Origin: Naegleria gruberi
Taxonomy: Eukaryota
Assembly: GCA_000004985.1 (NCBI GenBank)
Contig: GG738848.1
Strand: one strand, 5' to 3'
DNA: 64,000 nt
The translations under genes were made by a program, and so were the position numbers. This document shows, piece after piece, positions 1-64,000 of the stretch (positions within the stretch are counted from its first letter, which is position 1; each line of letters begins with the position of its first letter). A model generated the notes under the pieces. It searched no databases and had not been told where the DNA came from. It saw nothing but the letters and a program-made list of their open reading frames with translations.

Positions 1-2
1 AT

Positions 3-779
3 ATGGCCTATGCTGATTACAATGATTTGATGAAGATTACTGAAGAATTGTTGAGTGAAATGGCTCTCGTTGCCAATGGAAAGGATCCAAAGAACTTGCC
101 ATCAGTTGTTCCAGATGAATGGTATCATAGAACTTTCACTATGCCACACACTAATAAGGATGTTGTTGTCAACTTCAGACCACCATTCAAGAGACTTCCA
201 ATGATTTCAAGTATTGAAGAAAGACTTAACGTCAAGATCCCAACTCAATTGGATACTGAAGAAACCAGACTTTTCCTTGTTGATCTCCTCAAGAAGAATA
301 AGGTTGATTGTTCTCCACCAATGACCACTGCCAGAATGTTGGATAAGTTGGTTGGTGAATATCTTGAACCAGAATGTATTAACCCAACTTTCATTACTGA
401 ACATCCACAAATCATGTCACCACTCGCTAAGTGGCATAGAGATAACAAGGTCCTCACTGAAAGATTCGAATTGATGATCATCGGTAAGGAAGTCTGTAAT
501 GCTTACACTGAATTGAACCAACCTTTCATCCAACGTGAAAGATTCGAAGATCAAGTTGCCCAAAAGGATGCTGGTGACAATGAAGCTCAATTCATGGACG
601 AAGATTTCTGTAAATCACTTGAATATGGTTTGCCACCAACTGGTGGTTGGGGTATTGGTTTGGATCGTTTGACTATGATTCTCTCCAATAACTACAATAT
701 CAAGGAAGTTATTCTCTTCCCTGCTCAAAAGCCAGAAGATAACACACCAACTGAAAAGCCAGAAGAAGCCAAGCAATAA
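3..779 (+). CDS. Lysyl-tRNA synthetase, C-terminal catalytic part (5' end lies before the window)
   Basis: Class II aaRS motifs 2/3 context (…ERFELMIIGKEVCNAYTELN…, GLPPTGGWGIGLDRLTMIL) typical of LysRS. Continuous ORF ending TAA at 777-779. Yeast-like codon usage. Confidence 0.88.
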   Translation: MAYADYNDLMKITEELLSEMALVANGKDPKNLPSVVPDEWYHRTFTMPHTNKDVVVNFRPPFKRLPMISSIEERLNVKIPTQLDTEETRLFLVDLLKKNKVDCSPPMTTARMLDKLVGEYLEPECINPTFITEHPQIMSPLAKWHRDNKVLTERFELMIIGKEVCNAYTELNQPFIQRERFEDQVAQKDAGDNEAQFMDEDFCKSLEYGLPPTGGWGIGLDRLTMILSNNYNIKEVILFPAQKPEDNTPTEKPEEAKQ

Positions 780-833
780 ATTTATTGCAAAGTAAATATT
801 GTATAAATTATTTAAAATTAAGCTTTATTCTTT

Positions 834-2090
834 TTACGTATCAAGCCAAGAAACGTGGCCAGCAATTACAAATTTGCCTGGAAGTCCTTTACCAGGGGAT
901 GGAGAAAGAATTGTCATTGTCTTATTTTCATGGTCAATCTTTGTTACATGGATTACTCCATAAATATTTCTTGTTAAAACATCTTCCAATTTATCTGCAA
1001 GAGAAACAGCCAAGATACTGAACTTGGTGATTTCACTATGGTCAACTTGTTTAACTTCAACTGGATTATAACTGGATTTAGCACCAATTGGTAAAGCACT
1101 CAATGGAGCCTGCCATTCACCACCAATTCTGCAAAGGGTGAAATCCTCAAATCTTACAACTATGGAGTGAGGACTCAAAGATTTATGCATTCCATAGAAA
1201 TACTGCTTAGTTTTAAGTTGATTTGCAGTGGTTCTTTGCTCTTTTGATCTATTAATTACACCAGGATTTTTCTTCAAACGAGTGACAACAGCTTTTGTAT
1301 CTTTCAAATCTTTCTTTAAATTATTTGTAAGTCTGTCATCATCCATAACAATTACGTGGTTAATTTGCATAGTTTTTACAATATATAATAACAATTGAAT
1401 GCCAGAGCTGTCAACCCAACTTCCTGTATTAACAATAAATCCTCCTTCCTCATAGAATTGATCAACAGAACATTTCCTATCAATCATCTTTTTAGTTTGT
1501 TCCACAATCTTTTTGAAATGATCAACATTTTTATCAGGAGTTGTTTCACCATAGAAATAAGTTAAAGGAGAACATAATGAGAATTCATCCTCAATATCAA
1601 TTGGTTCATATGCATTCTTAGCAACCATACTGATGGTTCCAGGGAATGTAATATCATTCTGACCACAATCTAAATCAACAAATATCACTTTTTTACCAAC
1701 TCTAACAGCATAATTAACTAAAATTTTAGCAACTGATGATTTTCCTGTATCAGCAGGACCAACAACAAGAACTCTTGGAGGATTATTAACAGGTCCTCTC
1801 TCCATATTAATTTTATCATGAAATTCCAAATATTCCTTCATTGGTGTTTCTGATCCGACATAGTTAGAAATATTATCCTTTCCTTTAGAACTCTCCATTT
1901 CGATTGTTGCTCCATGATATGTAAATATTGCTCCATTTCTTCCACCAATAAAATTATAATCTCTATTCAAAGCCAATTCGGAACCAAAAAATTCAGCTTT
2001 TCCTTCCACTAATTTTATTTTAATACTTTCATCAAAGCCTACTTCAAATCTCAACTCTTCTCCTGCCTTTAATTCCACTCGGTGTTCCAT
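834..2090 (-). CDS. CLP1: Clp1-type polynucleotide kinase / pre-mRNA cleavage factor (418 aa)
   Basis: Walker A VLVVGPADTGKSS. Clp1 N-terminal beta-sandwich plus central kinase and C-terminal domain layout. ATG at 2088-2090. Tail-to-tail with LysRS, with about 55 nt between the stops. Confidence 0.82.
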   Translation of the reverse strand: MEHRVELKAGEELRFEVGFDESIKIKLVEGKAEFFGSELALNRDYNFIGGRNGAIFTYHGATIEMESSKGKDNISNYVGSETPMKEYLEFHDKINMERGPVNNPPRVLVVGPADTGKSSVAKILVNYAVRVGKKVIFVDLDCGQNDITFPGTISMVAKNAYEPIDIEDEFSLCSPLTYFYGETTPDKNVDHFKKIVEQTKKMIDRKCSVDQFYEEGGFIVNTGSWVDSSGIQLLLYIVKTMQINHVIVMDDDRLTNNLKKDLKDTKAVVTRLKKNPGVINRSKEQRTTANQLKTKQYFYGMHKSLSPHSIVVRFEDFTLCRIGGEWQAPLSALPIGAKSSYNPVEVKQVDHSEITKFSILAVSLADKLEDVLTRNIYGVIHVTKIDHENKTMTILSPSPGKGLPGKFVIAGHVSWLDT

Positions 2091-2278
2091 TTTTTTTGTA
2101 TTTGATTAAAATAATATTAATTCAATTTTATTGAACATGATGCAAATAATATCATTACAAAATAATTGAATGTATCAAAATTTATATCAATTTATCAATT
2201 ATATTGATTGTTTGATAACATGTAGTATTATTTCTAATGATTTCTTCATCAATTTAAATCAAAATCATCATTAAAAAA

Positions 2279-5200
2279 ATGAGTAAACAACTTTTTCGGA
2301 TTTGTAGCAACAATTCTTCATCAGCAGTTGCAACGAGGAATGGTAGTGTGCAGAAGAAAGGCTTGTTGATGACGGTTCGGGATCATGATGTCGGTAATAG
2401 TCAGAGAGGAAACTATCATACCTCTTTTAAAAATCAAGCAAAAATTGGATTATTTGGAGATATTCACTTTCAAGATGTTGGTTTGGAGAGAGTGGTTGAG
2501 ACTGGAGAGTGGATTACAAAAGAGTTTGAAAATCAAAAGGTGGATTATATTGTGTGTATGGGTGATGTGTTAAATACTCGAGAGACTGTTAGTATTAAAG
2601 CACAGAGTTCAGCTCTCCAATTTTTTGATAAATTGTCTCAAAAGATACCGAAAGAAATTCACATTATTTGTGGTAATCATGACTTGAATTTAAAGTATGA
2701 TACAAAAGTGAGCTCCTTGGATGCACTTGGTATGTCAAGTGTATCATCTAATAGAATTTATCTTCATAAGCATATTACAGAAACAGAGTTTGATGGAAAG
2801 AAAGTAGTATTAATTCCATATTATGAGGATACTTCAATAATCAGGGATTGGGTTGTTAAAAAAATCACAAAAGAACCACTTGATAATTCGATTGGGTTCT
2901 GCCATATGGCGATTAATGGAGCAATTCAACGATATCAAAAAGATAGTAAGGAAAATGTTTATTCTAGGAGTTATGATGACCATTCTGGAAAGAATATTTT
3001 GGTTGAAAAGAAAAAAGGAGACAAGAAAAAGGATACAGGAAGCGATATGGATTTGCCTGAGGAAGGATCCAAAGTACCAAAATTTTTAACTCAATTTCAA
3101 AGAGTGTTTTCAGGTCACTTTCACCATCATCACTTTTGTGATAAGAAGGTAGCATACGTTGGTGCACCTATGCAACATCACTTTGGAGATTCAGGTGATG
3201 CATCTAGAGGAGTAGTAATTTATGACACTGAAACTGATGAAATACAATTCGTTCAAAATCCTGAGTGGGATAAATTCAGAATACTACGATTGAGTAAGGA
3301 GGAAGACCTTGGAGAAATCACAGAATATAAGGGAAAGCACGTATCTGTTATTTATGAAAGTTTCGATTTAGTTCCCCAAGTTATACAAGAAAAGTTATTG
3401 AAGGCTGGAGCAAGTTCTGTGAAAAAACACTCTGTGGTAGTGAGAAAGGTTCAATCAGCATTATCTAGTGATGATCGTCAAAAGGATGACGAGAAGGCGT
3501 TCACTGGTCAAATGTTTGAGGATTTCGTTGTAAAATATGTAAAACAGTATGCTAATCTATCATCTATGGGATATGATTCTCAATTCAGTGATAATATAAT
3601 CAAAATTGGAAAGGAAATTATTTCAGAATCAACAAAGGAAGATAACAATAATCTAAATGTTGGTGATACGTTCAAAGCTAATATCAAGAGTATCACAATC
3701 CAAAATTTCTTGGGTGTTCAAGGATGTATTACCTTTGAAATCAAGAATATGCAAAATGGAATTTGGTTTTTGGAGGGATCAAATGGTGCTGGTAAAAGTA
3801 CAATTTTAGAGGCACTAACATGGTGTCTTTTTGATAAGTTTTTAAGATCTGATATGAAGGCAGATTTTGTTGTCAATGACCAAGTCAAAAAGGATTGTTT
3901 GGTCAGAGTAGATTTTGAATCAGGTTATTCTATTGAAAGATTCAGAAAGTATACAAAGACTGGAGAAAAGGAATTACCAGATGAATTAATTAGCAAATCT
4001 GCTCCAGAAAGAAAAGGAACAGGTGTTAGAGTTTTTAATCAAGGAACATATCTCAGCGATTTTGAAAAGGGTTCAACAAGAGATTCCCAGACTTCTATTG
4101 AGTCTCTTACCGGAATTAATTTTGATATGTTCACCAAAGCTATTGTTGTGGGAGACAATGCTGTAAATTTCTTAACCTCTGATGCAAAACAAAGAAGAGA
4201 TTTAATTGAAGATTTATTGGGGTTGTATCTTTTTGATAGCTATTTATCTAAGGCAAGGGAAAGAAAAAAGAGTCTTATTGAAAAAGTATATTCCATGAAA
4301 TCAGAACAGGAAAAAACAGAGTCTACCATTGTTTCCTTGGAAGAATCTCTGAAAAAGTGGAAAGAGCAATTATCACAAATTGATTCTGCTATTTCTGAAA
4401 AAGAAAACGATTATGCCGAATCAGTAGAATTGTGTAATGAATTAGTGGCTAAAAAGAAATCAGCAGAGAATAATTGGAAACAATTCCAGAAACTCAATAT
4501 TGCCAGGCAAAATTACAACAATCTCTTGAAGAAAAATGATCAATTAGAAGTCAGAATTAATACCCTCGAAAAGAATCTAGAAAAATTAGCAGAGGAAAAG
4601 GGGTCATTCTTTACTGACGATATCACAGATGTTAAACAATTGGAGAGATATTTTGAGGAGAATATTAATGAAATCAGATCTAATTTGAAGAGATTTTCAC
4701 AAACTTTGATGGAGAGCAATGTAGAATTAAATGTTTCTAAAGAGAAATTAGAAAAGTTGATGGACCTTTCTGAAAACAATGAATGCCCATATTGTGAGCA
4801 ACCTATCAAGGAACACACTCACGAGAAAATTCTTGAAGAAAAAAGAACCATTGAAGCTAGGGTTGAAGAGTTGACACAAAATATTGAGCATATTAATTTT
4901 ACTATTGCAGATTTGCAAGAGGAAATGGATGATTTGGAACGCTCTAAAAAATCCACAATGCAATCTCTTACCAAACTTGAAAATACAATTATCCTAAACC
5001 AGAAGGAGAAGGCAAATCTTGAAAATGATCTGGTCAATATTAGATCATCTATTGATTCTTCAGAAAAGGAATTGCAAAGTTTATCTAATGAATCTGAGGA
5101 CGTTGAGGCTACTCTTAATAGCTTGGTATCCCAAGAAAGAAAGGCAATGCAAAAAAAGTACGAATTGGATGCCAACATTAAATTCTCAAAGAAGAGAAAA

Positions 5201-5803
5201 TTAGAACTTGAACGAGACATAAAATCTAGTGAAGATTCTTTGGAAAATCTCAAGATAGATTATGAAACTATTTCTACAAGCTACAAGGATTATGAGCAAG
5301 ATTTTTCTGCTCTTGAATTTTGGGAAAAGGCTTTTGATAAAAAGTCAAAGAAATCAACCAAAGATGATTTTGAAACAATGAGATCATTCTTATTGAACAA
5401 ATCTATTGAAGATCTCAATAATATTTTGGATGAATATTCTAAACTTGTTGGAAGTGATATGTTAAAGATTACATTTGACTCTGATTTAATGATCAAAGAG
5501 GATTATGGTAAACGTTCTTCTGGACAACGTAAAAGAAATCACTTGATGATTCATTTTGCATTGTTCGAATTGGTTAGGCAGAGATCTAGATTCAGAAGCA
5601 ATTTCCTAATGTTGGATGAAGTATTTGATGCCTTGGATGTAAATGGGCAAGCACAAGTACAGCAAGTCATTGAGATGATTTCCACCAAGATTGATAAAGT
5701 ATTTGTAATTTCTCACTCAACCTCAAACATGGAACTGAGAAAAAAGGCAATTGTTGCCACCATGTCAGATGAGGGATCAAAGTACAAACTAACCTATAGA
5801 TAA
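2279..5803 (+). CDS. Fusion protein: N-terminal Mre11/SbcD-like calcineurin-type metallophosphoesterase plus C-terminal Rad50/SbcC-like ABC ATPase with coiled coil and CxxC zinc hook (1174 aa, no intron)
   Basis: Phosphoesterase motifs GDIHF (I), CMGDVLN (II), CGNHD (III), FCHMAING (IV), SGHFHHHH (V). Then Walker A GSNGAGKSTILEAL, a long heptad coiled coil with central CPYC hook, signature-like SSGQRK, Walker B/D-loop FLMLDEVFDALD and H-loop VISHS. Confidence 0.8.
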   Translation: MSKQLFRICSNNSSSAVATRNGSVQKKGLLMTVRDHDVGNSQRGNYHTSFKNQAKIGLFGDIHFQDVGLERVVETGEWITKEFENQKVDYIVCMGDVLNTRETVSIKAQSSALQFFDKLSQKIPKEIHIICGNHDLNLKYDTKVSSLDALGMSSVSSNRIYLHKHITETEFDGKKVVLIPYYEDTSIIRDWVVKKITKEPLDNSIGFCHMAINGAIQRYQKDSKENVYSRSYDDHSGKNILVEKKKGDKKKDTGSDMDLPEEGSKVPKFLTQFQRVFSGHFHHHHFCDKKVAYVGAPMQHHFGDSGDASRGVVIYDTETDEIQFVQNPEWDKFRILRLSKEEDLGEITEYKGKHVSVIYESFDLVPQVIQEKLLKAGASSVKKHSVVVRKVQSALSSDDRQKDDEKAFTGQMFEDFVVKYVKQYANLSSMGYDSQFSDNIIKIGKEIISESTKEDNNNLNVGDTFKANIKSITIQNFLGVQGCITFEIKNMQNGIWFLEGSNGAGKSTILEALTWCLFDKFLRSDMKADFVVNDQVKKDCLVRVDFESGYSIERFRKYTKTGEKELPDELISKSAPERKGTGVRVFNQGTYLSDFEKGSTRDSQTSIESLTGINFDMFTKAIVVGDNAVNFLTSDAKQRRDLIEDLLGLYLFDSYLSKARERKKSLIEKVYSMKSEQEKTESTIVSLEESLKKWKEQLSQIDSAISEKENDYAESVELCNELVAKKKSAENNWKQFQKLNIARQNYNNLLKKNDQLEVRINTLEKNLEKLAEEKGSFFTDDITDVKQLERYFEENINEIRSNLKRFSQTLMESNVELNVSKEKLEKLMDLSENNECPYCEQPIKEHTHEKILEEKRTIEARVEELTQNIEHINFTIADLQEEMDDLERSKKSTMQSLTKLENTIILNQKEKANLENDLVNIRSSIDSSEKELQSLSNESEDVEATLNSLVSQERKAMQKKYELDANIKFSKKRKLELERDIKSSEDSLENLKIDYETISTSYKDYEQDFSALEFWEKAFDKKSKKSTKDDFETMRSFLLNKSIEDLNNILDEYSKLVGSDMLKITFDSDLMIKEDYGKRSSGQRKRNHLMIHFALFELVRQRSRFRSNFLMLDEVFDALDVNGQAQVQQVIEMISTKIDKVFVISHSTSNMELRKKAIVATMSDEGSKYKLTYR

Positions 5804-9451: not shown

Positions 9452-9832
9452 ATGAGTGAACAACCTTCTCAAATTTCTTTGGGAAATATTTATGATTTGT
9501 CAGCTGAAGATTTAAATAAGAGTAGAGGTGAAAATATTGAACTTTTCCAAAGTCTTTACAAAACAAATTCCACACACATTGAAAGAATAATTTCAACAGG
9601 CCAATTCACACCATCCGATGAGTGGTATGATCAGGAAAGAGATGAATATGTTGTCTTGTTGAAAGGAGAAGCAACTTTGCTGATTGAAAATAAGGTAGAA
9701 AATGGTGTCGAATTGAAAGAAGTCAAATTGAAAAATGGTGATTATATTAATATTCCAAAACATGTTAGACATCAAGTGAAAGAAACCTCTAAGGATGATC
9801 CTTGTATTTGGTTGGCAGTTCACTATAATTAA
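9452..9832 (+). CDS. Cupin-fold small protein (126 aa)
   Basis: Beta-barrel cupin-like pattern (…EYVVLLKGEATLLIE…GDYINIPKHVRHQV…). ATG 9452. Its stop overlaps the stop of the convergent gene. Confidence 0.6.
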   Translation: MSEQPSQISLGNIYDLSAEDLNKSRGENIELFQSLYKTNSTHIERIISTGQFTPSDEWYDQERDEYVVLLKGEATLLIENKVENGVELKEVKLKNGDYINIPKHVRHQVKETSKDDPCIWLAVHYN

Positions 9833-12030
9833 TTGGAATGTTCTTTTTTCTTTCCCTGACTGAAATAATTATATAAAAATCTTAAAAATCTAAAAGTATA
9901 GACAACTACAGATATTGGAAATACAAATCCAGAAAGGAAAATAAGTGTTCCTAACATGTATCCTGAACCCTTGTCGAATAGCAATTGTACCAAATAATCT
10001 CTTCTGTTGTAATATCTGGATTCAGATCCTTTAAGTTGGGCAATATTTCCATCGGGTTTCATCTCAATAATACCATAATTTCTTCGAATAGAATGTTGCA
10101 AAAGTGGCTCATCTTCATCATTAGTTTTTCTGACCAGATACCAATGATCGAGTGTTGGATTAGCAAAGAAGAAGAAATCTATCAAATTGGCCACAATAAT
10201 CTTGAATTCACTTGAAACTGTAGAAGCTATGGTCATTCCACTTGTTATCAACTGTTCGAAACATTGATCTGGTGATTTACAAATTCTTGACTTTAAAAAT
10301 TGATGAATATCTCCTCCAACAAATACTATTCTATAGGTACCGTATGTATTAGATAAATAATCAAGGAAATTAATGACATCTTGTTTGAAATCTGGGTGAG
10401 TGGTATATCTTTCCTTCTCTGCAGCATAAACAACACTAGAAAAAGTATCTCCAAAGAAAAGGATTGGTATTGAAGTGAAAATAAGTGCCCTCTTAATCTT
10501 GATCGATCTATTTTCATTATTCATGCATGTACTCAAGAATGATTGAAGCTCTTTAAGTTGCTTACTTCCAAATAATGGATGAGTAGAGTCTCCATTGAAC
10601 GTTCTTTCAAATCTCAGATCCATCAGTGCTATGCAAGCGATACCAATGTCTCTGAAATAATAAATAGGTTCATTACTCACCAATTCTTGTCTAGAACCTG
10701 CAACAAGAGAATCCTTGATCAATTGGTATTGATATTCAAAAAATACCTCCTTTCCTGCCAATATCATTCTCTTAAATTGTTGATTTGAGTCTTGTTCCAT
10801 CATCCATCTATCCAAGTTATTGATAATATCATGATCGTCTGGAATCATCAAGTGTGAACCGTGTCTTAAAATCCTCTGTACAGCATTATATTTCCATGTA
10901 TTTCTATAAACATATCTGAAAGCATTCACTAAATCATCAAAAGTGGCATCAGGATTAATCTTTTTTACATATTCATGATAAACCCAATCAGCATACTATT
11001 AAAGTTCAATATTTTCAAATTAGAATCCACTACTTACAACCTGATCTCCCAAATGGATAACATAATCCCATAAATTATTTTGGTGTTCAATGTAAAACTC
11101 ATCAAAGGTAGTGATATCTTCATCCTCAAAAAGCCTGTCACAACTCATAGCTGCAATCCTAACATTTGATGTCAGTGAAAATGGGTCTGTAGAAATTGTA
11201 CAAAAAGTAGCATAATCCTCATCTTCATTCACGCTCTCTAATCTAATAAATTCAACAGTATAACAAGTGTTTGGAATTAATGAAGTAAATTGTAAAACTT
11301 TAGGTCCTTCTCTATCTTTCACTTCCACAACTTGTCCATGAATATCCTTTCCATTAACAACTGTTCTCGTATCAGTTCTTCTCAAAACAATCTTATATTG
11401 AGATGTATGCTGTTTAGTCCATTCAAGTCTTTCTTGTTCTGTCATCATTAAATAAATAAATTCAAAATCATCCTTATTCTGCTTGTACATTTTAATATTC
11501 GATTTAGAAGCAAAAATAGTTTCAATTCTCTTCTTTACATCCACAAATAAACTAATATCTTGTGGATTCTGTAAATCTCTGATCACATATGGAGGTGCCC
11601 ATTCATACAATATCCTAGCAGAGGTATCTGTAACTTCACCAACAACAATCATGAGTGGATCTTTTTGTTGTGATGGTTTATGATGAACAACTTTTGAAAA
11701 CATTATACTATTTGCATAAGGTTGACTAGATACAAAATTAATCAAAGTACAAGCAAATAATACAATTACAATATATGCCATCCACCTCCTCTTATATACA
11801 TTCAATAAATTACTACTATTATTTACAACTTGGTCTCCTCCTCCTTCCATCAACAACAACATTTCGTTCCGAGACTTTAATTCATTCACCATCATTATCC
11901 TCCTCTCTCCTATACAATTCTTCTCTGATAAATTCAAAGTCTTGTCATGAAGAGCATCAACACTATCATGATTGCAATCAAATAAAAACATTCGAAGCCT
12001 CCTCATCGTCACTCCTTCATTATCTTGCAT
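9829..12030 (-). CDS. PhoD-like metallophosphatase / phosphodiesterase. Two exons: 11038-12030 and 9829-10995; intron 10996-11037
   Basis: Spliced product restores the conserved …IHLGDQVYADWVY… and downstream DDHDI motifs of PhoD-family calcineurin-like phosphatases. N-terminal hydrophobic segment MAYIVIVLFACTLINFVSS acts as signal or anchor. Donor GTAAGT and acceptor AATAG are on the minus strand. Confidence 0.72.
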
Positions 12031-17022: not shown

Positions 17023-18102
17023 TTAGAGTAACATGAATGAAATCAATGAGAGGAGGGCAACAATTAATTGAAGGGCAGCAACTGAGGCATTGGATTTCTT
17101 ACTGCTTGCTGCAGTAGGAGTTGAGGATTTTCTGACACCAACGGCAACATTACTAGTTGCACCAACATCACCCACATAACTGAGCTTGGTGGCATCTAAC
17201 TTGACTTGATAGAGAGCATTAATAATAGGAGCAAGGTAGGCATGACAGAAATCAGCATTTAAGGTCTTGGTATATGGATCAGCACCCAAAGAAAAAGAGG
17301 TAATGTTGGCATTTGGGAAATTGCTTTTAGCAAGAGTTTCCATTGAAGTACCAGATTGAACACACAAATTGACTGTCTTTTGATTAAGATCACTCAAAGA
17401 TGAAATAGCAGAGCCAAGATTGCCTTTGACAACACCATTACCATCCTTAATATATGGACAAGTAAAATCAATCAAATCAGTTCTTGGAACAGTTTGACCT
17501 GAAGGGAGAGTTACTGTACCTTCAACTGACATACCACTCAAAATAAAATCAAATCTGAGATTACCCATATCAGTAATGAGATTACCAAAAACAGTGGTAT
17601 CATTGGTAAAGTAAGCTTGGAAAGGAACACCTGCATAATTCATACCAATTCTATAAGCAATAGAGGCAGCAATATCTTTAAAATTCAATTAGAACACATT
17701 AATACAGCACTATTTAAACTTACCAGCTTCGAAACCAGTGCATTTACCATAATTTGAACCTACAGCAGTGTAATTAAATCTTTTTGGAACATTCGCAACA
17801 CTGTTAGCACCAAAGAGAATATATTTACGTGCGAGAATACTGGCCATAGTAGAATCAGCTTGAAGGTCGGAAGCAGCTGGCCAAGTAGTATAATTTGTAC
17901 ATTTACTTGTTGGGGCATGGAGAATATTGTCACCAAAGTAAGATTGATGGATAGCATTGAACCCAATACTAGTTGTTGTATCAGCAAGGAAATCATAAAC
18001 AGCCTTGTTCAATGTTTTGGCAGCTGTTGACTGGGCACTGACAAGTGTAGCAGTGGTGGCAACTACACAACACAAAACGACAAGGAAAAATAAATTCTTC
18101 AT
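17023..18102 (-). CDS. Secreted, probably GPI-anchored protein with bacterial-type solute-binding family 3 (PBP type II) domain. Two exons: 17724-18102, 17023-17675
   Basis: N-terminal signal peptide MKNLFFLVVLCCVVATTATLVSA. SBP_bac_3-like core …DFILSGMSVEGTVTLPSGQTVPRTDLIDFTCPYI…. C-terminal S-rich stretch then hydrophobic tail AALQLIVALLSLISFMLL (GPI signal-like). A 48-nt GTAAGT…AAAG intron gives a phase-1 join. Confidence 0.65.
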
Positions 18103-20647: not shown

Positions 20648-22321
20648 ATGATTTTAATGAAACCACAGGGGTGCATTTTGTGGGTTCTTGTGGCGGTGAT
20701 TATTTTCTTTGGACAAGTGACATTATCACATGATAATTACATAATTTTAATGCCATTTCCTGATGTATCACATATTGTAGATAGTAAACAGATTGCTAGA
20801 GCCATTTCCATTATGAATATTACTAGTCAACCTGATCATTTATTTATTATCAATACTAGTGATGAGAGACAAGTTGTCGATCAAAATAATCAAAATTATT
20901 CAATGATTAATATCAAGGATTATTCTCCATATCACAATGCAATCAAAGGAAATTTAATTGAGAGAGTAAGAGCATTGGTTAGTGATTCTCAAATGACAGA
21001 TAGATATCAAGCAATGGTTGGATATTATTTTGATATTTACGAACCAACAATTAGAGGATTGGATGAATTATTCGAAACTCATCCTCAACTTTCTACTATA
21101 GATCCATCAAAACTCTTCTTTGTCATTGATGGCATCTACTCACCAGCAATTGAATGGTCAAGGAAAAGAGGAATCAGACATATTACATTGGCAAACACTC
21201 TCATTCTCATTCCACATCAATATAAACCAAATATTTTCCCACGAATGATTTATGAAAGAACTAGTTTGAGAAGAGGAAGAGAAATTTTGGAAAATGAAGG
21301 AATTTTGAAATTCTTTATGAATAGAATTGAAGAAAAATTGTTGAGATTCTTTGATTTTTTGAGGAATGTTATTTCATTATCGAATAGATTGAATGAAGTG
21401 AGAAAAAATTTGGGATATGAATCTGTTATGGGACCATTTGTTGATAGTTCTGATAGAGCTTCTATTTATTTTTCACTTCCTGGATTCGATTATGCCACAC
21501 CTCTTCCTGTAAATTATCATCTTGTTGGATTTACTAATACCATTGTTGATAATACTAAACTAAACGAAAGGGATGAAATTGTTGATGGTTGGATGGAAAG
21601 AAGCAATGCGAATCAAATAATTTATCTTTCATTTGGTACAAAGGCAAGATTATCTATCAATCACACTTGTGATTTTATTAGAAATATTCTATCAATTAAT
21701 TCAACTTATAATATTTTGATTTCTGAAAGAATTAACACTTGGAGTGATTTTGAAAAATGTAGAGGAATTCTTCCAGAATGGAAAAACCAAGTTTTAGTTA
21801 GACCTTGGTTAAATCAAGCTAAGGTATTGAGTAATCCGAAAGTTAAAATTTTCATTTCACATGGAGGAGCTCATTCCCTATTCGAATCCATTGAAAATCA
21901 AGTTCCAATCATGTTATTCCCTCAATTTGCTGAACAATTCCTGAACAACATTCGAGCAGAAGATTTAGGTTTTGGAAGAGCAATTTATGATCCAGCCAAT
22001 TCAGTTGAATTTACAAAACTATACAATGAATTGATGGAAAATACAAAAATCAAAACAAATTTGAAAAAGTGGGACAAAATTAATCAATTTCACACTCAAC
22101 ATTTCACTCAACTCGCTCAACACAATCAAATTTCACCAAATTTATTAATGGCCGCCAATGTAATTGAAAATATTATTGAAAATGGTGACGAACATTTAAG
22201 ATCAACTGAGAAACAACTTTATTTTATTGAAACAATTGATATTGTGCATTTACTTTTACTTTTATTAGTATTGCCACTATTGTTATTTCTTTCAAAGAGA
22301 TTTTTATTGAGAAGATCATGA
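20648..22321 (+). CDS. UDP-glycosyltransferase (GT1/UGT family) with C-terminal membrane anchor
   Basis: UGT signature HGGAHSLFESIENQVPIMLFPQFAEQFLN (PSPG-like box). N-terminal signal peptide. C-terminal hydrophobic anchor IVHLLLLLLVLPLLLFL. Confidence 0.82.
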   Translation: MILMKPQGCILWVLVAVIIFFGQVTLSHDNYIILMPFPDVSHIVDSKQIARAISIMNITSQPDHLFIINTSDERQVVDQNNQNYSMINIKDYSPYHNAIKGNLIERVRALVSDSQMTDRYQAMVGYYFDIYEPTIRGLDELFETHPQLSTIDPSKLFFVIDGIYSPAIEWSRKRGIRHITLANTLILIPHQYKPNIFPRMIYERTSLRRGREILENEGILKFFMNRIEEKLLRFFDFLRNVISLSNRLNEVRKNLGYESVMGPFVDSSDRASIYFSLPGFDYATPLPVNYHLVGFTNTIVDNTKLNERDEIVDGWMERSNANQIIYLSFGTKARLSINHTCDFIRNILSINSTYNILISERINTWSDFEKCRGILPEWKNQVLVRPWLNQAKVLSNPKVKIFISHGGAHSLFESIENQVPIMLFPQFAEQFLNNIRAEDLGFGRAIYDPANSVEFTKLYNELMENTKIKTNLKKWDKINQFHTQHFTQLAQHNQISPNLLMAANVIENIIENGDEHLRSTEKQLYFIETIDIVHLLLLLLVLPLLLFLSKRFLLRRS

Positions 22322-26368: not shown

Positions 26369-26394
26369 CTAATTTAAGGAGGCAAAAGGTTAAG

Positions 26395-26467
26395 TGGAGA
26401 TGCGGGGTATCGATCCCCGTACCTCTTCCATGCTAAAGAAGCGCTCTACCATGTGAGCTACATCCCC
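26395..26467 (-). tRNA. tRNA-Ala (anticodon AGC)
   Basis: Minus strand reads GGGGATGTAGCTCACATGGTAGAGCGCTTCTTTAGCATGGAAGAGGTACGGGGATCGATACCCCGCATCTCCA. Cloverleaf with G3:U70-type acceptor, anticodon loop TTAGCAT and T-arm GGGGATCGATACCCC. No encoded CCA. Confidence 0.85.
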
Positions 26468-48400: not shown

Positions 48401-48432
48401 AATGTCATTACTGTAGTGAACTAATAAATTAT

Positions 48433-55540: not shown

Positions 55541-55558
55541 ATAAAAAATACCTAGATG

Positions 55559-58500
55559 TTAAATGTGATACAATTCGTGAATCATGAAAAAGTATTCAAT
55601 TGGACAATATAATTTGAGTTTTCGTACCATCTCTTCATCTAATTTGATCGTTATCAATAAATCTCTACATTGATTGATAATTTCAAATAATTGTTCAATA
55701 ATGAAAGGTTTTAAATGTTCATGTTCCATCAAATCAATAAAAATTCTCATTCCTTTCAAAATTTCATCAGAGGCAACAGAATTTAAACTCAACGAGCTTA
55801 TAGTTCCATTACTATTGTTATTGGAATTTTGAATCAGAGAAGTTTCATAATTATAAGAATGATTAATGGATTCATTCTTCAATGCAGTAATATCATTTAG
55901 AACATTAAATCTACTTGTTATTGTTTCTAATCCTAAACGAACAATTTGATGTTCCATACATGGTTGTATTAAACCTTTCAATACTTGATTAGGAAAATAT
56001 GAAATATGAGTTGTAACATTAGAATATCCAAAATTTAAAGAATCAACAATTAATGAAGATGCAGCACTAATATTTCCAAATAAACTTGTTAAGGTTGATT
56101 TACGTCTATTGTTAGATTGTCCAGATGATCCAATAGTATTATAATTACCAGCATTGCCACTATTATTTGTCTGTTGTTGAGAATCTTGAGAATTAATATT
56201 ATTATAAATTGAATAATTTGGAAACATGGCACTTGTTGGTGAATTCATTCCTCCTCCAACTCCACCACCCATAAATGTACCACTATTATTATTGCTATTG
56301 CTTGTAGTATTAGAAGTAGGAGGATATAACAAGTGAGAAAGTTGAACTGTCCACTCACTAATATTCACACCACTATTATTCATTCCACCAACACTACTAA
56401 CATTACCAAAACTTCCACCTATACCACCTATATTATTATTACTTGAATTATTATTACTACCACCACCTATATTACCAATATTATTATTATTACCAGTATT
56501 AATATTATTATTACCAGTATTATTAATATTATTATTATTATTACTTGAACCACCATTAAAAGATTGTGAAGTTGTTGCAATTAATCTTTTTAAAATTGTT
56601 TGTTCAAATTCTTCTTTTTGTTGTTGATTAGTTCCAAATTTAATGAAATGAAAAATGTGATTTAATAATTTTTGAGTATTTGAATTTAAAATAAAAGAAG
56701 AAATTCCATCAATTAATTGTCTTTCAATAATAGTATTACTAAATAAAGATAAAGTATTAACATTTGATAAATTTTGATCTTTTCTAAAAATTTCATTTAA
56801 ATAAAAACAAGCATAAAATCTAATTATAAAAGGTTGATTTCCATTTTGAATTAAATCCATAAATCTTTTTATAACTCTTTCAGATGAAATTGGTAAAATT
56901 GATAAAACTTTAAAAGTTTTAATAATTAATTCATTATTAATTTCATAATTATTTCTATTATCATCATGAATAAATAATAATAATAACATTGATAAATTAT
57001 TTAATAATTGTTCATGTAAATTATTTTTAATATTTCCATTTTTAGTAGTAATATTACTATTTATAGTATTATCATTATATTTATAGTAATTAATTAAATA
57101 TTCTTTCATAATTTTTAAATAATGTTTATAAACAAGTAAAAGTAAAATTGTTTGTTTAAATTCAGATAAAGGTTGTTGTGAAATTCTAATTAAAGATTTA
57201 AATAAAATTGATAATAAATCACAAAATATTCTTTCTATAATAATTGGAACTCCTTTACATGTAATTGTATAATTTCCATATATAGGTAGTAATTTAGTTA
57301 CTATATATAGACATGATAAATGTTGTTCTAAATTAAAATTTTGATCAAAATAATATAATTCTATATTTGTAGGTATTGAAGCAATTCCTTTTTGTTCATT
57401 ATTATCTAATAAATTTGGTAATAAATATGAAATACATAATTTTAAAATATGTGAAATTTTACCATTTGAATTTAATTCTAAAAATTCAAATTGATTTAAT
57501 AAATTTTTATGTGAAATTTCCATTTCTGTATTATTATTACCATTTTTATCAGAATGAGAAGAAGAACAAGATGATGATGATGAATCTGAAATATCATCTG
57601 AAATATCATCTTCATCTTCTGAATTTACTATATTTGTTAATAAAATTGTAATTGATTTTGCTAAATTTAAAAATCTTGGAATTAAATAATTTTTTTTAAT
57701 TAAAATATATTCCCTTTTTAAATATTGATCATTTTCAATTTGTAAAATATATTGATTATTATTAATATTATTAAATAAATTATTTTGATTATTTAAAATT
57801 CTTTCCATAATTATTAATAAATGAATTTCCTTATTAGTAGAAATAGTTTCAATTAATTTTACAAAATTTAAATCTAAAGAATTTAAAATACAATTATCAA
57901 TAATTGATAAAATACTTGTTTTAGAATTACTATTTATAGTAAAATTAAAAGGTACATAAATGGAAATTAATTTACTCATGTAAGATTCATCTTGTTCAAA
58001 AATATCAATAAATTTAATTAAATGATCATAAAATAATTTGTTAAATTCAATTGAATTATTATAAATTTTACCTAAAAAATTAAAATTAATTAATTTTTTA
58101 AAATCATCCATAATTTTATCTAAAATTAAATTATCAATAATTAAATTTAAATTTAATAATTGTAATAAAAAATTAGAACAATTAATTTTTTCATTATTTT
58201 TATAATTTTTAAATAAAAAATTATATAATTGATAAACAATTTTATAACTATCATAACTTGTTTTAGATTCCAAATTTGGAGAAATAAATTCATCTGGATT
58301 TATATTTTGAATTATATTAATTAAAGTTAAAATTAAATTAAATAAAATTATAATTCCTTCATCATTTTTATAATTATTAATTAAAATTAATAAATCATTA
58401 ATTGACTTTTTTAGTAATTTCATATAAACATTTAAAATTTGTCTATTTTGTATAATTTCTATATTTGAATTTAAAATAATTAATAATAAAAATGGTGTTG

Positions 58501-59418
58501 TATTATAAATATTTAATAATAAATTACTCATTTGTTCAAATAAATAATTTAATTGGCAATGTTCAATTAATTTAGTAATTCCAAAACAAGTATGTACATA
58601 ATTAGAAATATTAAAATTTGTAATATTAAAAAAATCAGAATCATTAAATTCACTTAAATTAATTGGTTGTGATAATTTTAAAGAAGGTGTAATTGACCTT
58701 CTAAAAATAGATTTTGTTTTCTTTTTTTCTAAATTTATAATTAAATCTTCAGAAATTTTCTTATTTTTTAAAAAATCACTTAAAATTTCTATAAATGTAT
58801 TTGAATTTAAATCATTATTATTAAAATAACTTGTTTCATTTTTAATTAAAATTCTTAAAGCAATTTGTTGAATACTTGTATATTTAGAAGTAACTGCCCT
58901 TTTTAGATATTCTCTATATATAGTTTCAATTTCTTGTATATCTTTTAATTCTCCATTTATATTATTAAGAACATTACTTCCATTTATATTATTATTATTA
59001 TTATTATTAGTAGTATTATTAGTAGTAGTGGATGATGATGATGGTGATGAATTATTCCATAAATTACCACTATTAGATTTATTAGATGATAATCCATTTA
59101 AAATACTACTTGTATGATTATTCATACTATTATATTGTCTTGAATGTTGTTGTTGTTGTTCTTTCTTATTTCTTATATTCATTATATTCATTATACTATT
59201 ATTACTATTATTATTATTATTAGATCTACTACTATTATTTTTAAAAGAATTAGAAGTAGATGATAAATTATCAACACTATTTGAATAATTTGTTGTTGAT
59301 GATGAAATTTGTCTAAAAGAAGATAATTCATTCTTTCTTCTAATTTGATTTGTAAATTGTTCAAGTTTATCCAATGATAAATTTCTAATTAAAATTCTTT
59401 CAATAATTAATTCTTCAG
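55559..59418 (-). CDS. C-terminal portion of giant Asn/Ser-rich protein-kinase gene (continues across the assembly gap)
   Basis: 1271-aa ORF, open in frame right up to the N-run. Asn/Ser homopolymer tracts and a Leu-rich helical region. Confidence 0.6.
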
Positions 59419-59468
59419 NNNNNNNNNNNNNNNNNNNNNNNNNNNNNNNNNNNNNNNNNNNNNNNNNN
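59419..59468. other. Assembly gap (run of 50 N) inside a coding region
   Basis: Literal n characters. The ORF is open on both flanks. Confidence 0.99.
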
Positions 59469-62400
59469 AAATTGTGGTAAATATCCTAATAATGGAAATT
59501 GTTGTGATGCAATTTGATGATCATCTTCATAATATTGTTGATAAATAAAAACTAATTGTCTCCAAATTAGGCGATACAATTGTGGTCTTTCAGAAAAGAA
59601 ATCATCGGGTAATTTTCTAAACTTTTCAATTTTGGAAACTGATAAATATTCTGCTAAATCTAACATGAATTCCATAAATTCATTAGATGTTAATATTTTT
59701 TCCTTTTTTGTAAATTGTTCAATATTATTAAAGGAAATTCTCTTTCTTTCATCACTTTCTTTTAATGAAAGTCTATTTCCACTACTATTATTATTATTAT
59801 TAGTAGTAGTAGTATTAGTAGTAGCACTACCTCCTCCACTATTACTATATATACTTGAATTTGAGATAACACCACCACTTGAAGAATTTGTTTGATTGTT
59901 AAATAAATTCAAATTCTTTGAATCTCTTTTACCCATTGAAAATCTTAAACTTCTACTTCTGACACGTCCACCACCAGCACCAACACCACCACTAGATGTT
60001 GGTGTTCCACTACCACCTACATAATTAGAAGTAAAAACACCAGTACCAGCACCACCACTATTAGTATTAGTATTATTTGGACTAATACTGAGTGAATGAG
60101 CCATAGCAGTATTGGAATCAGATGAATTTGGTATTAAAGTGGATGGAGTATTAGATGCTGAATTAAATACATCACTATATTGTTGTTCAATATTAGCAAA
60201 TAAAGAAGGTGTTACAACAACAACAAGTGAATCAGTTGATGAATCATAATCCATATGAGTTGATTGTTGTTGCTGCTGTTGTTGTTCAGATCCTCTTCTA
60301 AAGAATGATTGTGAATGATGATGTGATGATTGATTCATTCCAATACTATTATTACTATTAACATTTCCAAATAAATAATTATTAGATGCCAAATTACTTG
60401 GTAATAAATTCAAATCAGATGAAATGTAAAATTTGTTTAAAAATTGTTCTAACATCATTCTAATTGGTATTTCATTCATTTCAATTAAACTATTACTAGT
60501 ATTAGTATTACTATTAGTAGTATTAGTATTATTACTAGTATTATTAGTAGTAGATTCAATATTTTCCTGTTGTTTGAGTGCAAAATAATGAGCAAATGAT
60601 GGAATTCTAGCAATTTCCAAATATCTAAAATCATATTCATTCAATTCATTAAATAAAGTATTATATAAATTTAATGATCCACTATAATTCTTTTTATCCT
60701 TATTCTTTTTAACATTTGAATTGGCATTAATTGAAGAAGAAGAAGTGGATGATGAAGAATTTGATTGTCCTGAAACAATATTTCCTAAAATATTTGATAA
60801 ATTAGTAGAAATGAATAAATTAGGAGGAGGTGGAGCACAATTTTGTAAAAGAGATGAAATATTATTAATACCCATTGATTGAATATCAATAGTTTTTAAA
60901 ATATAATTATAATGTTGTGATTGATTAAAATTTGGATCTAATGGATGTTGTTGTTGTTGCTGAGTAAAATTTTGATTTTCAATAATATAAATGGTATTAT
61001 TTGTTAAATTTGATAATTGTGACATGATATTAAAATATTCTTGACCTTTAAAATGTTGAAAATGATCAAAAATTAAAATACATTTACCATTTAAAATTAA
61101 TTGTTTTAAATATTGTTGAATTTCCTTATTAAATTGTAAATGTTGTTTTTGTAAATTGTTTGCAGTTGATGAATTATTTCTAGAATTAAATCTTGGACTT
61201 TGTGTAAAACTACCAAAATTAGAATTTGAATTTTCATTAAATAAAATATCATTTGCTAATTTTATAACATTTCCAAAATAATATTCAAAACATCCTTGAA
61301 TTATTTTATCTATAAAATCATTTATATTTGGCATATTTAATATATTTCTTAAAGATACCATAATTGGTATTTTAAATAAACTATTAGAATGATTTGATAA
61401 TAATTGATTTAATAAATTATTATTACTTGCCATATTAGAAGAATTACTAGTATTTAAAGTATAAATATGTTCCATATAATATCTATGTATAGATGAAATA
61501 AAAAATGATAAATCTGAATCTGTAAAATTACAATTTCTACAATTTAAAACATAACATATACAAAGTGATGAATATTTGTTATATTGAAAATTATCATTTC
61601 CACCTCCTCCATTACCATTTCCACTATTATTACTTCCAATACTACTATATCCACTACTACTATTTACACTATTAATACTATTATATCTATTATTAGAAGA
61701 TTGTGTACTAAATCTATTATTATTATTATTATTATTATTATTACTGATATTATTACCGATATTATTGATATTATTATTGTTAATACTATTTCTATAATCG
61801 AATGAATTTGAATTATTTGAATCAATTAAATGACTTGATTGAAATAAAAGATCAAAATTTGTATTTCTAACACCAATAACAGCACCTCTCTTTCTTGTTT
61901 TAAAATTATCACCATCATTAATATCCATTGAAAATACATTCATTGACATTCTATTAGATGCTATATTAGAATAGCATGATAATCCAATTGTAGAAGAAGA
62001 AGAGGATGATGATATTATTGAATTAGATTGATTATTCATATTAATATTATTGGATTGATTCATATTAGTATTATTAATATTGGATTGATTGATAGATGTT
62101 GAAATGGTATTATTTAAAAATGGTGAATTAAATAGTGGTGAATTATTATTAGCAACACCTGAAGAAGAATTAAATGAAGAATTTCTTGATATTGAAATTG
62201 GTAATGAAGATGCAATATTTGATACATTAATATTACTTATATTTGTTGTTGTTATTGAAGTGGTAGTGGTGGTATTATTATTATGAATATTATTATTATT
62301 AATATTATTAATATTACTATTTATAGTAGTATTATTATTATTATTATTATTTAATAAATTATTTAAACTTGATGAATGTGAAAGTTTTCTTGAAGAAGAA

Positions 62401-63664
62401 AATTGATTTGATGATAAATAATTATTTTGAGGTGTAATATAAGAAGTAATTTCCAATTTTACTTCTTTTAAAAATCGAATATAATCAAATTTTCCTTTTA
62501 TAGAAAATATTAAATTATCTTCATCTTGAATTCTTTTAAATAAATCATATAACATTACATTCATATTATTTTCATTAAATGTTTCAGATTTATCTTCTTC
62601 CTCGTTTTCATTAAAAATATTACTATATATATATAAATTACTAAAATATTCATCCTTAAATGGAAAGTTTTTACAATTTTGTACACATTTTACAAAAGTA
62701 TAAATGGAAACATTATTTTCACTATCACTTGATAATAAAGTTTTTAAAACTTTTTCAGATTTTGAATGAAAAGCAGATTTTGTAAAAAAATAATAACAAT
62801 CTTTAAATTCATTCCAAGAAACTTTGTAATTTTGAGTTCCAAACATTTGATCCCAAAAATGTCTTGCTAATCTATAAATAATATAATAGGTAGATGTAAA
62901 TTTATGTATAAATGATAATGAATTTCCTAAATTAGTATTTCCTAAATTGGATGATTGATTATTCATTAAAATATTACTTAAATTAGAAGACATGGGTGAT
63001 GATGAAATCATTTGAATATTTCTAGGTGAAAAATCTAATCCATTATTATTATTATTATTATTATTTATATTTATATTATTTATATTATTTATATTATTAT
63101 TTATATTATTATGATCTATTAAATTTAAATTATATGAAGAAATTGATTGTATTGAATCAATATCTTTTTGAATTGATTCTAATGCAGATAAAATATCTAC
63201 TTTTTCATCCATACTTGTATTTATATTTCCATTAATGGATGTATTATTACCATTAATAGAATGATGATTGTGATGATTATTATTAATATTATTATTAAAA
63301 TTTGATTCTTTTCTTTCTTTTAATAAAAAATTTAAACATTCAGTTGCATTTAATCTTTCACTTGAATCTAATCTTAAACATTTATATACCAATTTTAGTA
63401 ATATTGAATGTCCTTTATCAAGTAATAAAGTTAATAAATTAAAAGATTGATTCTTATCAATACATTCACTTATAAAATTATCAATTACTAATTTAGTTTC
63501 ATAATTATTTGAACAATTAAATAATAAATCTCTTAATGAATCAAATCGACTTCTCCTTTTTTGTACAAGTAATTGTAATGCTACTATTCCTAATGCCCAC
63601 ATATCAACTGATTCATTATAATATTTACCATCAAATATTTCAGGTGCCATATAATTTTTAGATC
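59469..63664 (-). CDS. Central exon of giant protein-kinase gene: kinase C-lobe followed by ~1350 aa Asn/Ser/Gln-rich low complexity
   Basis: …GSKNYMAPEIFDGKYYNESVDMWALGIV… (subdomains VIII-XI), then poly-N/NNI repeats. Acceptor AAAAAG|GATC at 63665. Confidence 0.65.
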
Positions 63665-63779
63665 CTTTTTTTAAAATTATTAAAATATTAAAATATTATT
63701 TATGGAAATTATTTAATATATATGGAAATTAATATATAAAATTAATATGAATAAATGAATATGAATGAATAAAACTTAC

Positions 63780-63930
63780 CTGTTATACTCATAAGAGGTG
63801 AATCACCAACTTTAAATTCACGTGTTAATCCAAAATCAGATAAATAAATTTGAGCATTTTCAATAATTTCCTTATATGATAAATTTGTATCATTTGTTTT
63901 TTTAGATTGTAATAAAATATTATCAGGTTT
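63780..63930 (-). CDS. Protein-kinase exon (catalytic loop to activation segment) of the same gene; more 5' exons lie beyond the window end
   Basis: KPDNILLQSKK…IYLSDFGLTREFKVGDSPLMSITG. GTAAGT donor (plus 63774-63779) and AATTTAG acceptor. A 115-nt AT-rich intron lies between this exon and the next. Confidence 0.65.
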
Positions 63931-64000
63931 CTAAATTATTTAAATATATTTATAAATATTAATAAATATTAATAAATTAAAAATATTAAAAATATAAAAA

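Follow-up and report, generated by a model that had tools for sequence, protein, structure and literature searches.

A bacterial-type alpha-2-macroglobulin and other candidate bacterial-derived genes scattered through a probably ordinary nuclear region of Naegleria gruberi

Introduction

Scattered bacterial-derived genes are already well documented in bacterivorous amoebae. For Acrasis kona, horizontal gene transfer (HGT) is phylogenetically supported for 1253 of 15868 genes (7.9%; PMC11589745), and in Willaertia magna a bacterial best hit is obtained for 5.1% of the proteins (PMC6892926). The genes transferred to such amoebae are often metabolic or secreted, and have gained introns and signal peptides afterwards (PMC11589745, PMC6892926). 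Naegleria gruberi shares this heterolobosean context and is a free-living, bacterivorous amoeboflagellate with a genomic GC content of 33% (PMC6892926). Here, a 64,000-nucleotide stretch of N. gruberi DNA (contig GG738848.1; hereafter the window) was analysed, for which a preliminary description had proposed a cluster of genes with prokaryote-type domains, possibly acquired by HGT. Seven genes had been put forward: an SbcCD-like fusion, a protein with SHOCT repeats, an SBP_bac_3 protein, a PhoD-like phosphatase, a cupin, a UDP-glycosyltransferase (UGT) and an alpha-2-macroglobulin (A2M)-like protein.

Exact matches to RefSeq proteins identified the window as nuclear DNA of N. gruberi NEG-M within a 712,659-bp scaffold. 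It is gene-dense, with approximately 31 genes distributed over both strands. Our analysis indicates that it is probably an ordinary nuclear region, in which a minority of the genes would be bacterial-derived, independently acquired before the living Naegleria species diverged, and domesticated. In light of the documented cases, the claim of transferred genes matters little as originally stated; what the window contributes is a single clean case, the bacterial-type thioester A2M that is fixed in the genus Naegleria, alongside a few that are probable. By-products of note are a family of SbcD-SbcC fusion proteins found only in eukaryotes and a compositional outlier confined to a single gene.

Results and discussion

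A bacterial-type alpha-2-macroglobulin in Naegleria

The candidate with the clearest bacterial affinity is the A2M gene:

33604-40404, (+) strand: bacterial-type alpha-2-macroglobulin, XP_002681967 / NAEGRDRAFT_45966, 2266 amino acids (aa), single exon; Pfam MG2, A2M_BRD, A2M and bMG10

Domains were called here, as throughout, by Pfam hmmscan of raw open reading frames (ORFs) and spliced models; bMG10 scored 104.6 bits, and a Big_5 domain was also present. The CNEQ thioester motif is located at residues 1701-1704, where the ORF reads YPYECNEQ, and C1701, E1703 and Q1704 were invariant across an alignment of 15 A2M sequences. The closest matches to the protein were an N. gruberi paralogue (74% identity) and proteins from N. 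fowleri and N. lovaniensis (51%). All remaining matches were proteins of approximately 2000 aa, bacterial or metagenomic, with approximately 28% identity, and the protein homology search returned no eukaryotic homologue outside Naegleria at E ≤ 1e-10. When 185,579 prokaryotic species genomes were scanned, relatives were confirmed in at least 597 bacterial genomes (597 of 600 motif-matched stretches), and the matches listed included members of the Acidobacteriota, Chloroflexota, Myxococcota, Planctomycetota and other phyla. The similarity is not restricted to single domains, as residues ~75-2262 of the query were colinear with most of the 80 bacterial loci listed, at 26-31% identity (tblastn).

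The placement of the Naegleria proteins was assessed in a neighbour-joining tree of 1961 columns, with 78 bacterial sequences and more distant bacterial A2Ms as the root. The four Naegleria sequences (one each from N. fowleri and N. lovaniensis and two from N. gruberi) were monophyletic in 100 of 100 bootstraps; the species order within the clade was as expected, with the two N. gruberi copies representing a recent duplication. The clade was nested among bacteria, as sister to a metagenome-assembled genome of the Obscuribacterales in 73% of replicates and as sister to all 78 bacterial sequences in 19%, and given this split the tree does not fix the donor. A bacterial ancestry of the A2M is thus well supported by the sequence comparisons, and it constitutes the one clear case in the window.

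The Naegleria proteins also differ from their bacterial relatives. A variable, highly Cys-rich insert at residues ~1385-1440, between the A2M_BRD and A2M matches (CCEQCGECDD...CCKKSCGLACF...), was found in none of the aligned bacterial relatives. Moreover, the annotated Naegleria N-termini are polar or poly-Q and carry no hydrophobic leader, signal peptide or lipobox, whereas those of the bacterial relatives are lipobox-like; these features, like the other signal peptides, glycosylphosphatidylinositol (GPI)-like tails and transmembrane (TM) topologies reported below, were judged by eye. Such remodelling of the N-terminus and the insert is consistent with a long residence in the amoeba. None of the NCBIfam models matched the Naegleria A2M, and no description of it turned up in a literature search. 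A COG2373/A2M-like protein of the bacterial type is also present in Dictyostelium (PMC2430557), and Naegleria is therefore not the sole eukaryote with a bacterial-type A2M.

Other candidate genes of the window

The seven domain types named in the preliminary description were all statistically supported, SBP_bac_3 at a borderline level, and PhoD and SBP_bac_3 only after splicing. Its remark that several of the genes contain spliceosomal introns was also borne out: GTAAGT...AG introns were found in three of the seven (those encoding the PhoD-like, SBP-like and SHOCT proteins), while the other four are single exons, and the three hand-spliced products were identical, residue for residue, to the public proteins XP_002682110, XP_002682113 and XP_002681965. 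Apart from the A2M, a bacterial affinity is probable or possible for three genes, one of which had not been on the list:

9452-9832, (+) strand: Cupin_2 protein, 126 aa, single exon; Pfam, 32.6 bits
29332-30396, (+) strand: endonuclease/exonuclease/phosphatase-fold (EEP) nuclease, XP_002681966, 354 aa; Pfam Exo_endo_phos_3, 62.5 bits; not previously listed
17023-18102, (-) strand: SBP_bac_3-like solute-binding-fold protein, XP_002682113, 343 aa; exons 18102-17724 and 17675-17023, with a 48-nucleotide (nt) intron at 17676-17723

The best solved relative of the cupin was PDB 2OPK (E 1.2e-16). Cupin genes on Pseudanabaena plasmids showed 47-48% identity over 91-94% of the length, and genes on Methylocystis, Pantoea and Vibrio replicons 39-45% identity, which suggests that the cupin is probably of bacterial origin. 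Similarly, the EEP nuclease matched the NCBIfam ExeM/NucH domain (E 9e-13) and a Sinorhizobium/Shinella endonuclease, with 30% identity over 88% of the length (E 1e-32), and is probably bacterial-derived as well. For the SBP-like protein the relationship is more remote. SBP_bac_3 was not matched on the raw ORFs and reached 25.5 bits after splicing, slightly below the cut-off of 26.4, and the NCBIfam model of the Lys/Arg/Orn-binding protein was matched with an E-value of 1.3e-10 at 41.3 bits against a cut-off of 256. Bacterial solute-binding proteins (SBPs) and cyclohexadienyl-dehydratase ancestors in the PDB were found at E 2e-10, and identity to bacterial SBPs amounted to 24-28% over 63-70% of the length. 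The Naegleria protein begins with a signal peptide and ends in a hydrophobic, GPI-like tail. A relationship with bacterial SBPs at the level of the fold is supported by these matches, and a bacterial origin is possible.

The remaining candidates, apart from the SbcCD-like fusion treated below, are less readily connected to bacteria, and include a second gene that had not been listed before:

9829-12030, (-) strand: PhoD-like metallophosphatase, XP_002682110 / NAEGRDRAFT_62688, 719 aa; exons 12030-11038 and 10995-9829, with a 42-nt intron at 10996-11037
20648-22321, (+) strand: GT1-family UDP-glycosyltransferase, XP_002681963, 557 aa, single exon; Pfam UDPGT
27182-29173, (+) strand: calponin-homology (CH) protein with SHOCT repeats, XP_002681965, 616 aa; exons 27182-27310 and 27452-29173, with a 141-nt intron at 27311-27451
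30976-32904, (-) strand: membrane protein with two YrhK domains, 642 aa; Pfam YrhK, 68.6 bits over two stretches; not previously listed

Removal of the 42-nt GTAAGT...AG intron from the PhoD-like gene rebuilds the metallophosphatase motif GDQV|YADW, and raises the PhoD (PF09423) score from 17.7 bits on the raw ORF to 34.6 bits, above the cut-off of 27. PF09423 has many eukaryotic members. No relatives of the PhoD-like protein were found in the PDB, in NCBIfam or among plasmid sequences, the plasmid tblastn being uninformative as to origin, and the protein is therefore a very divergent member of its family. The YrhK region had no plasmid match either, a tblastn result that is equally uninformative as to origin. 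Single-sequence AlphaFold2 models were too poor for a fold search, with a predicted local distance difference test (pLDDT) of 52.6 for the cupin and 38.6 for the second exon of the PhoD-like gene.

The UGT scored 57.9 bits with UDPGT (PF00201; cut-off 19.5) over residues 379-542, which covers the C-terminal half only, and its N-terminal acceptor half was recognised by no profile. Among the 99 GT1 sequences in the PDB that it matched at E ≤ 1e-3, plant UGTs and human UGT2B were the best, and the bacterial OleD ranked lower. Plasmid-borne bacterial macrolide glycosyltransferases were 22-27% identical, in alignments that covered no more than 55% of the protein. The UGT begins with a signal or anchor and ends with a TM helix and a basic tail, an arrangement found in UGTs of the endoplasmic reticulum (ER). 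The protein would accordingly be read as a eukaryote-style ER glycosyltransferase, and nothing in the comparisons favours a bacterial origin. In N. gruberi the UGT gene sits between a GT49 glycosyltransferase gene and a gene for an 827-aa protein at 22575. In N. lovaniensis the latter two are directly adjacent (locus L084, 13643-18236), in the other orientation and with no UGT between them, which indicates that the UGT locus has been rearranged.

The spliced CH-SHOCT product contains a complete CH domain (69.3 bits) ahead of the SHOCT (PF09851) repeats, which scored 50.2 bits, with three repeats scored by Pfam and five discernible by eye. The gene thus appears to encode a eukaryotic CH-domain protein, in which the prokaryote-like part would be at most a short motif and not a gene.

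The cupin and PhoD-like genes are convergent on opposite strands, (+) and (-), and in N. gruberi they share 4 nt at their ends (9829-9832). The convergent pair is retained in N. lovaniensis, with 72% identity for the cupin and 69% for the PhoD-like protein, approximately 15 nt apart (locus L084, 21934-22380). Co-transfer of the two genes was considered and rejected, as neither of the two bacterial cupin loci inspected had a PhoD neighbour. Separately, the cupin is missing from the NCBI N. gruberi protein set, and is found in the protein collection only from a 3,492-bp contig of an assembly in ENA. The cluster representative of the PhoD-like protein derives from an ENA contig of equal length, and fragments of the SBP-like protein derive from a 2,827-bp one. 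This suggests that some public ENA assemblies contain Naegleria-like DNA.

An SbcD-SbcC fusion family in eukaryotes

The first of the candidate genes in the window encodes a nuclease-like protein and an ATPase-like protein in one chain:

2279-5803, (+) strand: single-exon SbcD(Mre11)-SbcC(Rad50)-like fusion, 1174 aa; Pfam Metallophos (38 bits), AAA_23 (58 bits) and SbcC_Walker_B

Both halves appear intact in an alignment of the family. Invariant residues were D61, H63, G95-D96, G132-N133-H134-D135, H209 and G279-H280-F281-H282 in the phosphoesterase, and G503/G505-K506-S507, S1080/G1082 (signature) and D1113-E1114 in the ATPase. The CxxC zinc hook (C836/C839) was nearly invariant, and the hook region matched Rad50 hook structures. 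A profile of the family scored 100 bits with E. coli SbcC, 70-78 with prokaryotic Rad50, 44 with Thermotoga Mre11 and 28 with human RAD50. The PADLOC model of LmuB from the Lamassu system (PDLC03859) aligned along almost its full length to residues 468-1147 (E 2.4e-30, 104 bits). The domains of the fusion are accordingly of the prokaryotic SbcCD type, though its scores stayed far below the NCBIfam cut-offs for both sbcC (TIGR00618, 66.9 versus 478.5 bits) and sbcD (TIGR00619, 24.7 versus 77.65 bits).

The distribution of the fused gene is eukaryotic. All named homologues belong to eukaryotes, namely N. lovaniensis (60% identity), Physarum polycephalum (36%), the arcellinid Pyxidicula, Creolimax, weakly a Dictyostelium species, and the Pezizomycetes Ascodesmis, Peziza and Rhizina (approximately 30%). 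Four metagenomic homologues lie in eukaryotic-type gene contexts, clearly so in three (F-box/EGF/rhomboid; IFT57/IFT122/Dpy-30; Nup192/EF-hand) and less clearly in the fourth, where a protein kinase (Pkinase) was the sole informative neighbour. When the three best-conserved motifs of the family were used to scan the prokaryotic species genomes, no relatives were found in any of the 185,579. A viral origin was also considered, and rejected as no relative was present in IMG/VR.

Judged by the distribution of its relatives, the fused gene is an old, patchily distributed eukaryotic family, represented in Heterolobosea, Amoebozoa, Pezizomycetes and Ichthyosporea (three supergroups), and not an acquisition by Naegleria. 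We infer that the fusion arose from a transferred sbcD-sbcC operon. It may have been acquired and fused once, long ago, and then lost many times, or it may have spread between eukaryotes. No description of the fusion turned up in a literature search, and this eukaryotic family is apparently undescribed. It apparently resembles the eukaryotic MRN less than it does bacterial SbcCD and Lamassu LmuB. One conceivable function is that of a stand-alone DNA-end or hairpin sensor and nuclease directed against viruses or mobile DNA, but we consider such a defence-type role doubtful. Lamassu reportedly evolved from DNA-repair machinery (PMC12663957), and the LmuB match may thus only mirror the ancestry shared by Rad50 and SbcC.

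Scattered genes in a probably ordinary nuclear region

Taken over the seven genes, the earlier suggestion that their closest architectural analogues are bacterial held clearly for the A2M, probably for the cupin and possibly for the SBP-like protein; it failed for the UGT, the CH-SHOCT architecture and the fused SbcCD, and the PhoD-like protein could not be placed. Only about a third to a half of the bacterial-named domain calls survived checking here. Pfam names coined on bacterial founders, such as SBP_bac_3, SHOCT, PhoD, bMG10 and YrhK, are no evidence of transfer.

The arrangement of the window was assessed against its other genes, including the following:

3-779, (+) strand: C-terminal part of LysRS (Pfam), housekeeping comparator; GC content at third codon positions (GC3) 0.36
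834-2090, (-) strand: Clp1 (Pfam), housekeeping comparator; GC3 0.22
26394-26467, (-) strand: tRNA-Ala(AGC) gene, the one Rfam hit of the window to reach the gathering score, between the alpha/beta-hydrolase and CH-SHOCT genes
59419-59468: gap of 50 N, the sole gap of the window; positions 1-59418 contain none

The candidate genes begin at 2.3, 9.5, 9.8, 17, 20.6, 27, 29, 31 and 33.6 kb, and between them lie Clp1, SWIRM/Myb, Ras GTPase, GT49, alpha/beta-hydrolase, tRNA-Ala and other genes, so that the candidates form no contiguous foreign block. The candidates were said to share the host codon bias, and this applied to all seven: none deviated in composition or codon usage, with GC3 values of 0.21-0.29 compared to 0.19-0.36 for their neighbours (LysRS, Clp1, SWIRM/Myb, a Spg1-like GTPase, a PH-TH1 gene, RUN and others). 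The bacterial relatives differ from gene to gene, being found on cyanobacterial and proteobacterial plasmids for the cupin, on rhizobial replicons for the EEP nuclease (within the plasmid set), and in Acidobacteriota, Chloroflexota and Myxococcota for the A2M. Comparison of the best relatives, together with the two bacterial cupin loci, gave no evidence of a common donor or of co-transfer among neighbouring genes.

Against a background of 5-8% taken from the literature, the presence of two to four genes of bacterial affinity among approximately 31 is not exceptional (binomial P(X ≥ 4) = 0.07-0.23), and the enrichment that had been read into the window finds no support in this count. A bacterial origin of all seven genes would by contrast stand out (P < 0.01 at a background of 5-8%, and 0.03 at 10%). 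The interspersion of the candidates, their host-like GC3 and a count within the background thus suggest an ordinary region rather than an island. The preliminary description had regarded such gene content as typical of gut-dwelling or phagotrophic, AT-rich eukaryotes; the phagotrophic and AT-rich part of this applies to the present organism and the gut-dwelling part does not, since N. gruberi is a free-living phagotroph.

The integration appears to be old. In N. lovaniensis the order LysRS-Clp1-(one gene)-SbcCD fusion is found, and three of the candidates (the SbcCD fusion, the cupin and the PhoD-like gene) keep their neighbourhoods in that species, with identities of 60-72% that resemble those of the neighbouring genes. 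This synteny, together with the A2M clade, argues for an ancient integration, in agreement with the earlier view. A genus-level age could be demonstrated for the A2M and the cupin, and the history proposed below is otherwise inferred.

The most likely explanation for these observations is that a bacterivorous ancestor of Naegleria took up single bacterial genes on separate occasions, namely the A2M and probably the cupin, the EEP nuclease and the SBP-like protein. After uptake, the genes would have drifted to the host composition and gained introns, targeting signals or inserts, with one duplication. The SbcD-SbcC fusion would be far older than these acquisitions. The apparent cluster would then result from Pfam names derived from bacterial founders, combined with the number of bacterial-derived genes that is normal for a bacterivorous amoeba.

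Several points weigh against this explanation. The CH-SHOCT, EEP, YrhK and A2M genes are consecutive (27.2-40.4 kb) and all carry bacterial-named domains, which mildly suggests a local enrichment. If most candidates were in fact bacterial, a count of six to seven among 31 would lie above the background (P < 0.03), and the background rates themselves come from other heteroloboseans and were obtained by differing criteria. The origins of the cupin, EEP nuclease, SBP-like protein, PhoD-like protein, UGT, YrhK protein and SHOCT repeats were judged from sequence and profile matches, and the affinities of the cupin, EEP nuclease and SBP-like protein come from comparisons with bacterial sequences. 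Finally, the scan for prokaryotic relatives of the SbcCD fusion used three family-specific patterns and could miss divergent bacterial fusions.

The alternative to which some of these points lead is a true hotspot or island, in which most or all of seven to nine prokaryote-type genes were transferred into a region that preferentially accepts or retains them. Nine of the approximately 31 genes have domains named on bacterial founders, four such genes are adjacent in the run just described, the cupin and PhoD-like genes adjoin each other, and bacterial affinity is indeed seen for the A2M, the cupin and the EEP nuclease. However, eukaryotes alone yielded the SbcCD fusion, the UGT and the CH-SHOCT protein have eukaryotic architectures, and the supported count lies within the background. 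Housekeeping genes on both strands separate the candidates, no compositional deviation accompanies them, the bacterial sources differ, and PhoD was absent from the two bacterial cupin loci. The neighbourhood of the A2M also differs in N. fowleri, where the four-gene run was not seen around the gene. An island is therefore an unlikely account of the window.

Alternatively, no transfer may have taken place, in which case the genes would all go back by vertical descent to the last eukaryotic common ancestor, or to the mitochondrial endosymbiont, with losses in most other eukaryotes. The occurrence of the SbcCD fusion in three eukaryotic supergroups and of the COG2373/A2M-like protein in Dictyostelium would agree with this, and to our knowledge the PhoD, GT1, cupin and EEP folds are universal. 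On the other hand, Naegleria provided the only eukaryotic A2M matches at the E-value threshold given above, compared to hundreds of bacterial genomes with colinear, full-length relatives, and for lineages that parted at the origin of eukaryotes, the 47-48% identity of the cupin to genes on cyanobacterial plasmids is high. Very many independent losses would also be required, and we regard vertical inheritance of these genes as quite improbable.

Bacterial contamination or a chimeric assembly is a far more remote prospect: 135 bacterial contaminant proteins have been reported in the public N. gruberi proteome (ContScout, PMC10831095), but the candidates here lie on one contig without a gap from 1 to 59418, interleaved with LysRS, Clp1, SWIRM/Myb, Ras GTPase, RGS and RUN genes, and this linkage, along with their host-like codon usage, three spliceosomal introns and syntenic orthologues in an independently sequenced species, leads us to exclude it, as the preliminary description had done.

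A low-GC kinase gene at the end of the window

The strongest compositional anomaly of the window lies outside the proposed cluster, in a single gene:

55559-64000, running past the window end, (-) strand: Asn-rich Ser/Thr kinase NAEGRDRAFT_62707, 2038-aa model; the 50-N gap at 59419-59468 lies inside

From approximately 55.6 kb to the window end, the GC content drops to 0.08-0.33. Over positions 63650-55775, including the conserved kinase domain, the gene has a GC content of 0.19-0.22 and a GC3 of 0.03-0.14, compared to a GC3 of 0.19-0.36 in its neighbours, and a host-like GC3 of 0.26 is reached only in the last 72 codons (55774-55559). Its two long (-) strand ORFs have GC3 values of 0.06-0.075 and long Asn runs, and TTA makes up 84% of their Leu codons (28% elsewhere). 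Among 1.84 billion representative proteins, the non-kinase part had just one further homologue, in the AT-rich W. magna (42% identity); the same search gave none for N. fowleri or N. lovaniensis. The GC3 of the W. magna orthologue (0.106) is typical of its own neighbours (0.09-0.28).

As the compositional transition lies inside gap-free contig, a mis-assembly of the gene is unlikely. Contamination by, or a chimera with, Dictyostelium DNA at 56-64 kb was considered in view of the 19% GC and the poly-Asn stretches, and was rejected since this is an annotated N. gruberi gene with a homologue in the sister genus Willaertia. NAEGRDRAFT_62707 is thus an outlier at the level of a single gene, with a Willaertia-like signature and a GC3 of approximately 0.05 where its neighbours have approximately 0.25. 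It may derive from a eukaryote-to-eukaryote transfer from an AT-rich vahlkampfiid, or may reflect a gene-specific AT drift or mutational regime.

Comparison with known systems

The proteins of the window resemble their described counterparts to very different extents. The A2M shares MG2, A2M_BRD, A2M, bMG10, Big_5 and the C-x-E-Q motif with the bacterial A2Ms of the approximately 2000-aa form (COG2373; E. coli YfhM/ECAM-type). It differs from them in being nuclear-encoded and duplicated in N. gruberi, in its Cys-rich insert, and in lacking a lipoprotein signal.

Compared to SbcCD and Mre11-Rad50 (PDB 6S6V from E. coli; 3QG5 from Thermotoga), the SbcD-SbcC fusion has the same N-terminal phosphoesterase, C-terminal ATP-binding cassette (ABC) ATPase, coiled coil and CxxC hook. 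The described systems consist of two subunits, whereas the fusion is one chain of 1174 aa with a shorter coiled coil. In E. coli the operon order is sbcD-sbcC, and the order of the domains in the fusion, read from the N- to the C-terminus, is the same. With Lamassu, the fusion shares an LmuB-like ATPase half, but its N-terminal effector is an SbcD-type phosphoesterase, it has no LmuA or LmuC partners, its neighbours are Clp1 and a membrane protein, and its host is a eukaryote.

The remaining proteins depart further from the bacterial systems after which their domains are named. Unlike the SBP_bac_3 proteins of bacterial ABC transporters, the SBP-like protein is not encoded beside a permease or ATPase, its neighbours being the Ras GTPase and the GT49 glycosyltransferase. 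In prokaryotes, SHOCT is a short C-terminal domain of bacterial and archaeal proteins, while here it is internal, repeated and placed downstream of a eukaryotic CH domain. The UGT shares the nucleotide-sugar-binding half and the topology of the animal and plant ER-type UGTs, and its similarity to the macrolide glycosyltransferases is of an equally weak order. Set beside the documented transfers from bacteria to amoebae, in Acrasis kona, Willaertia magna and Acanthamoeba castellanii, the window presents the same pattern of scattered single genes, with no difference in kind.

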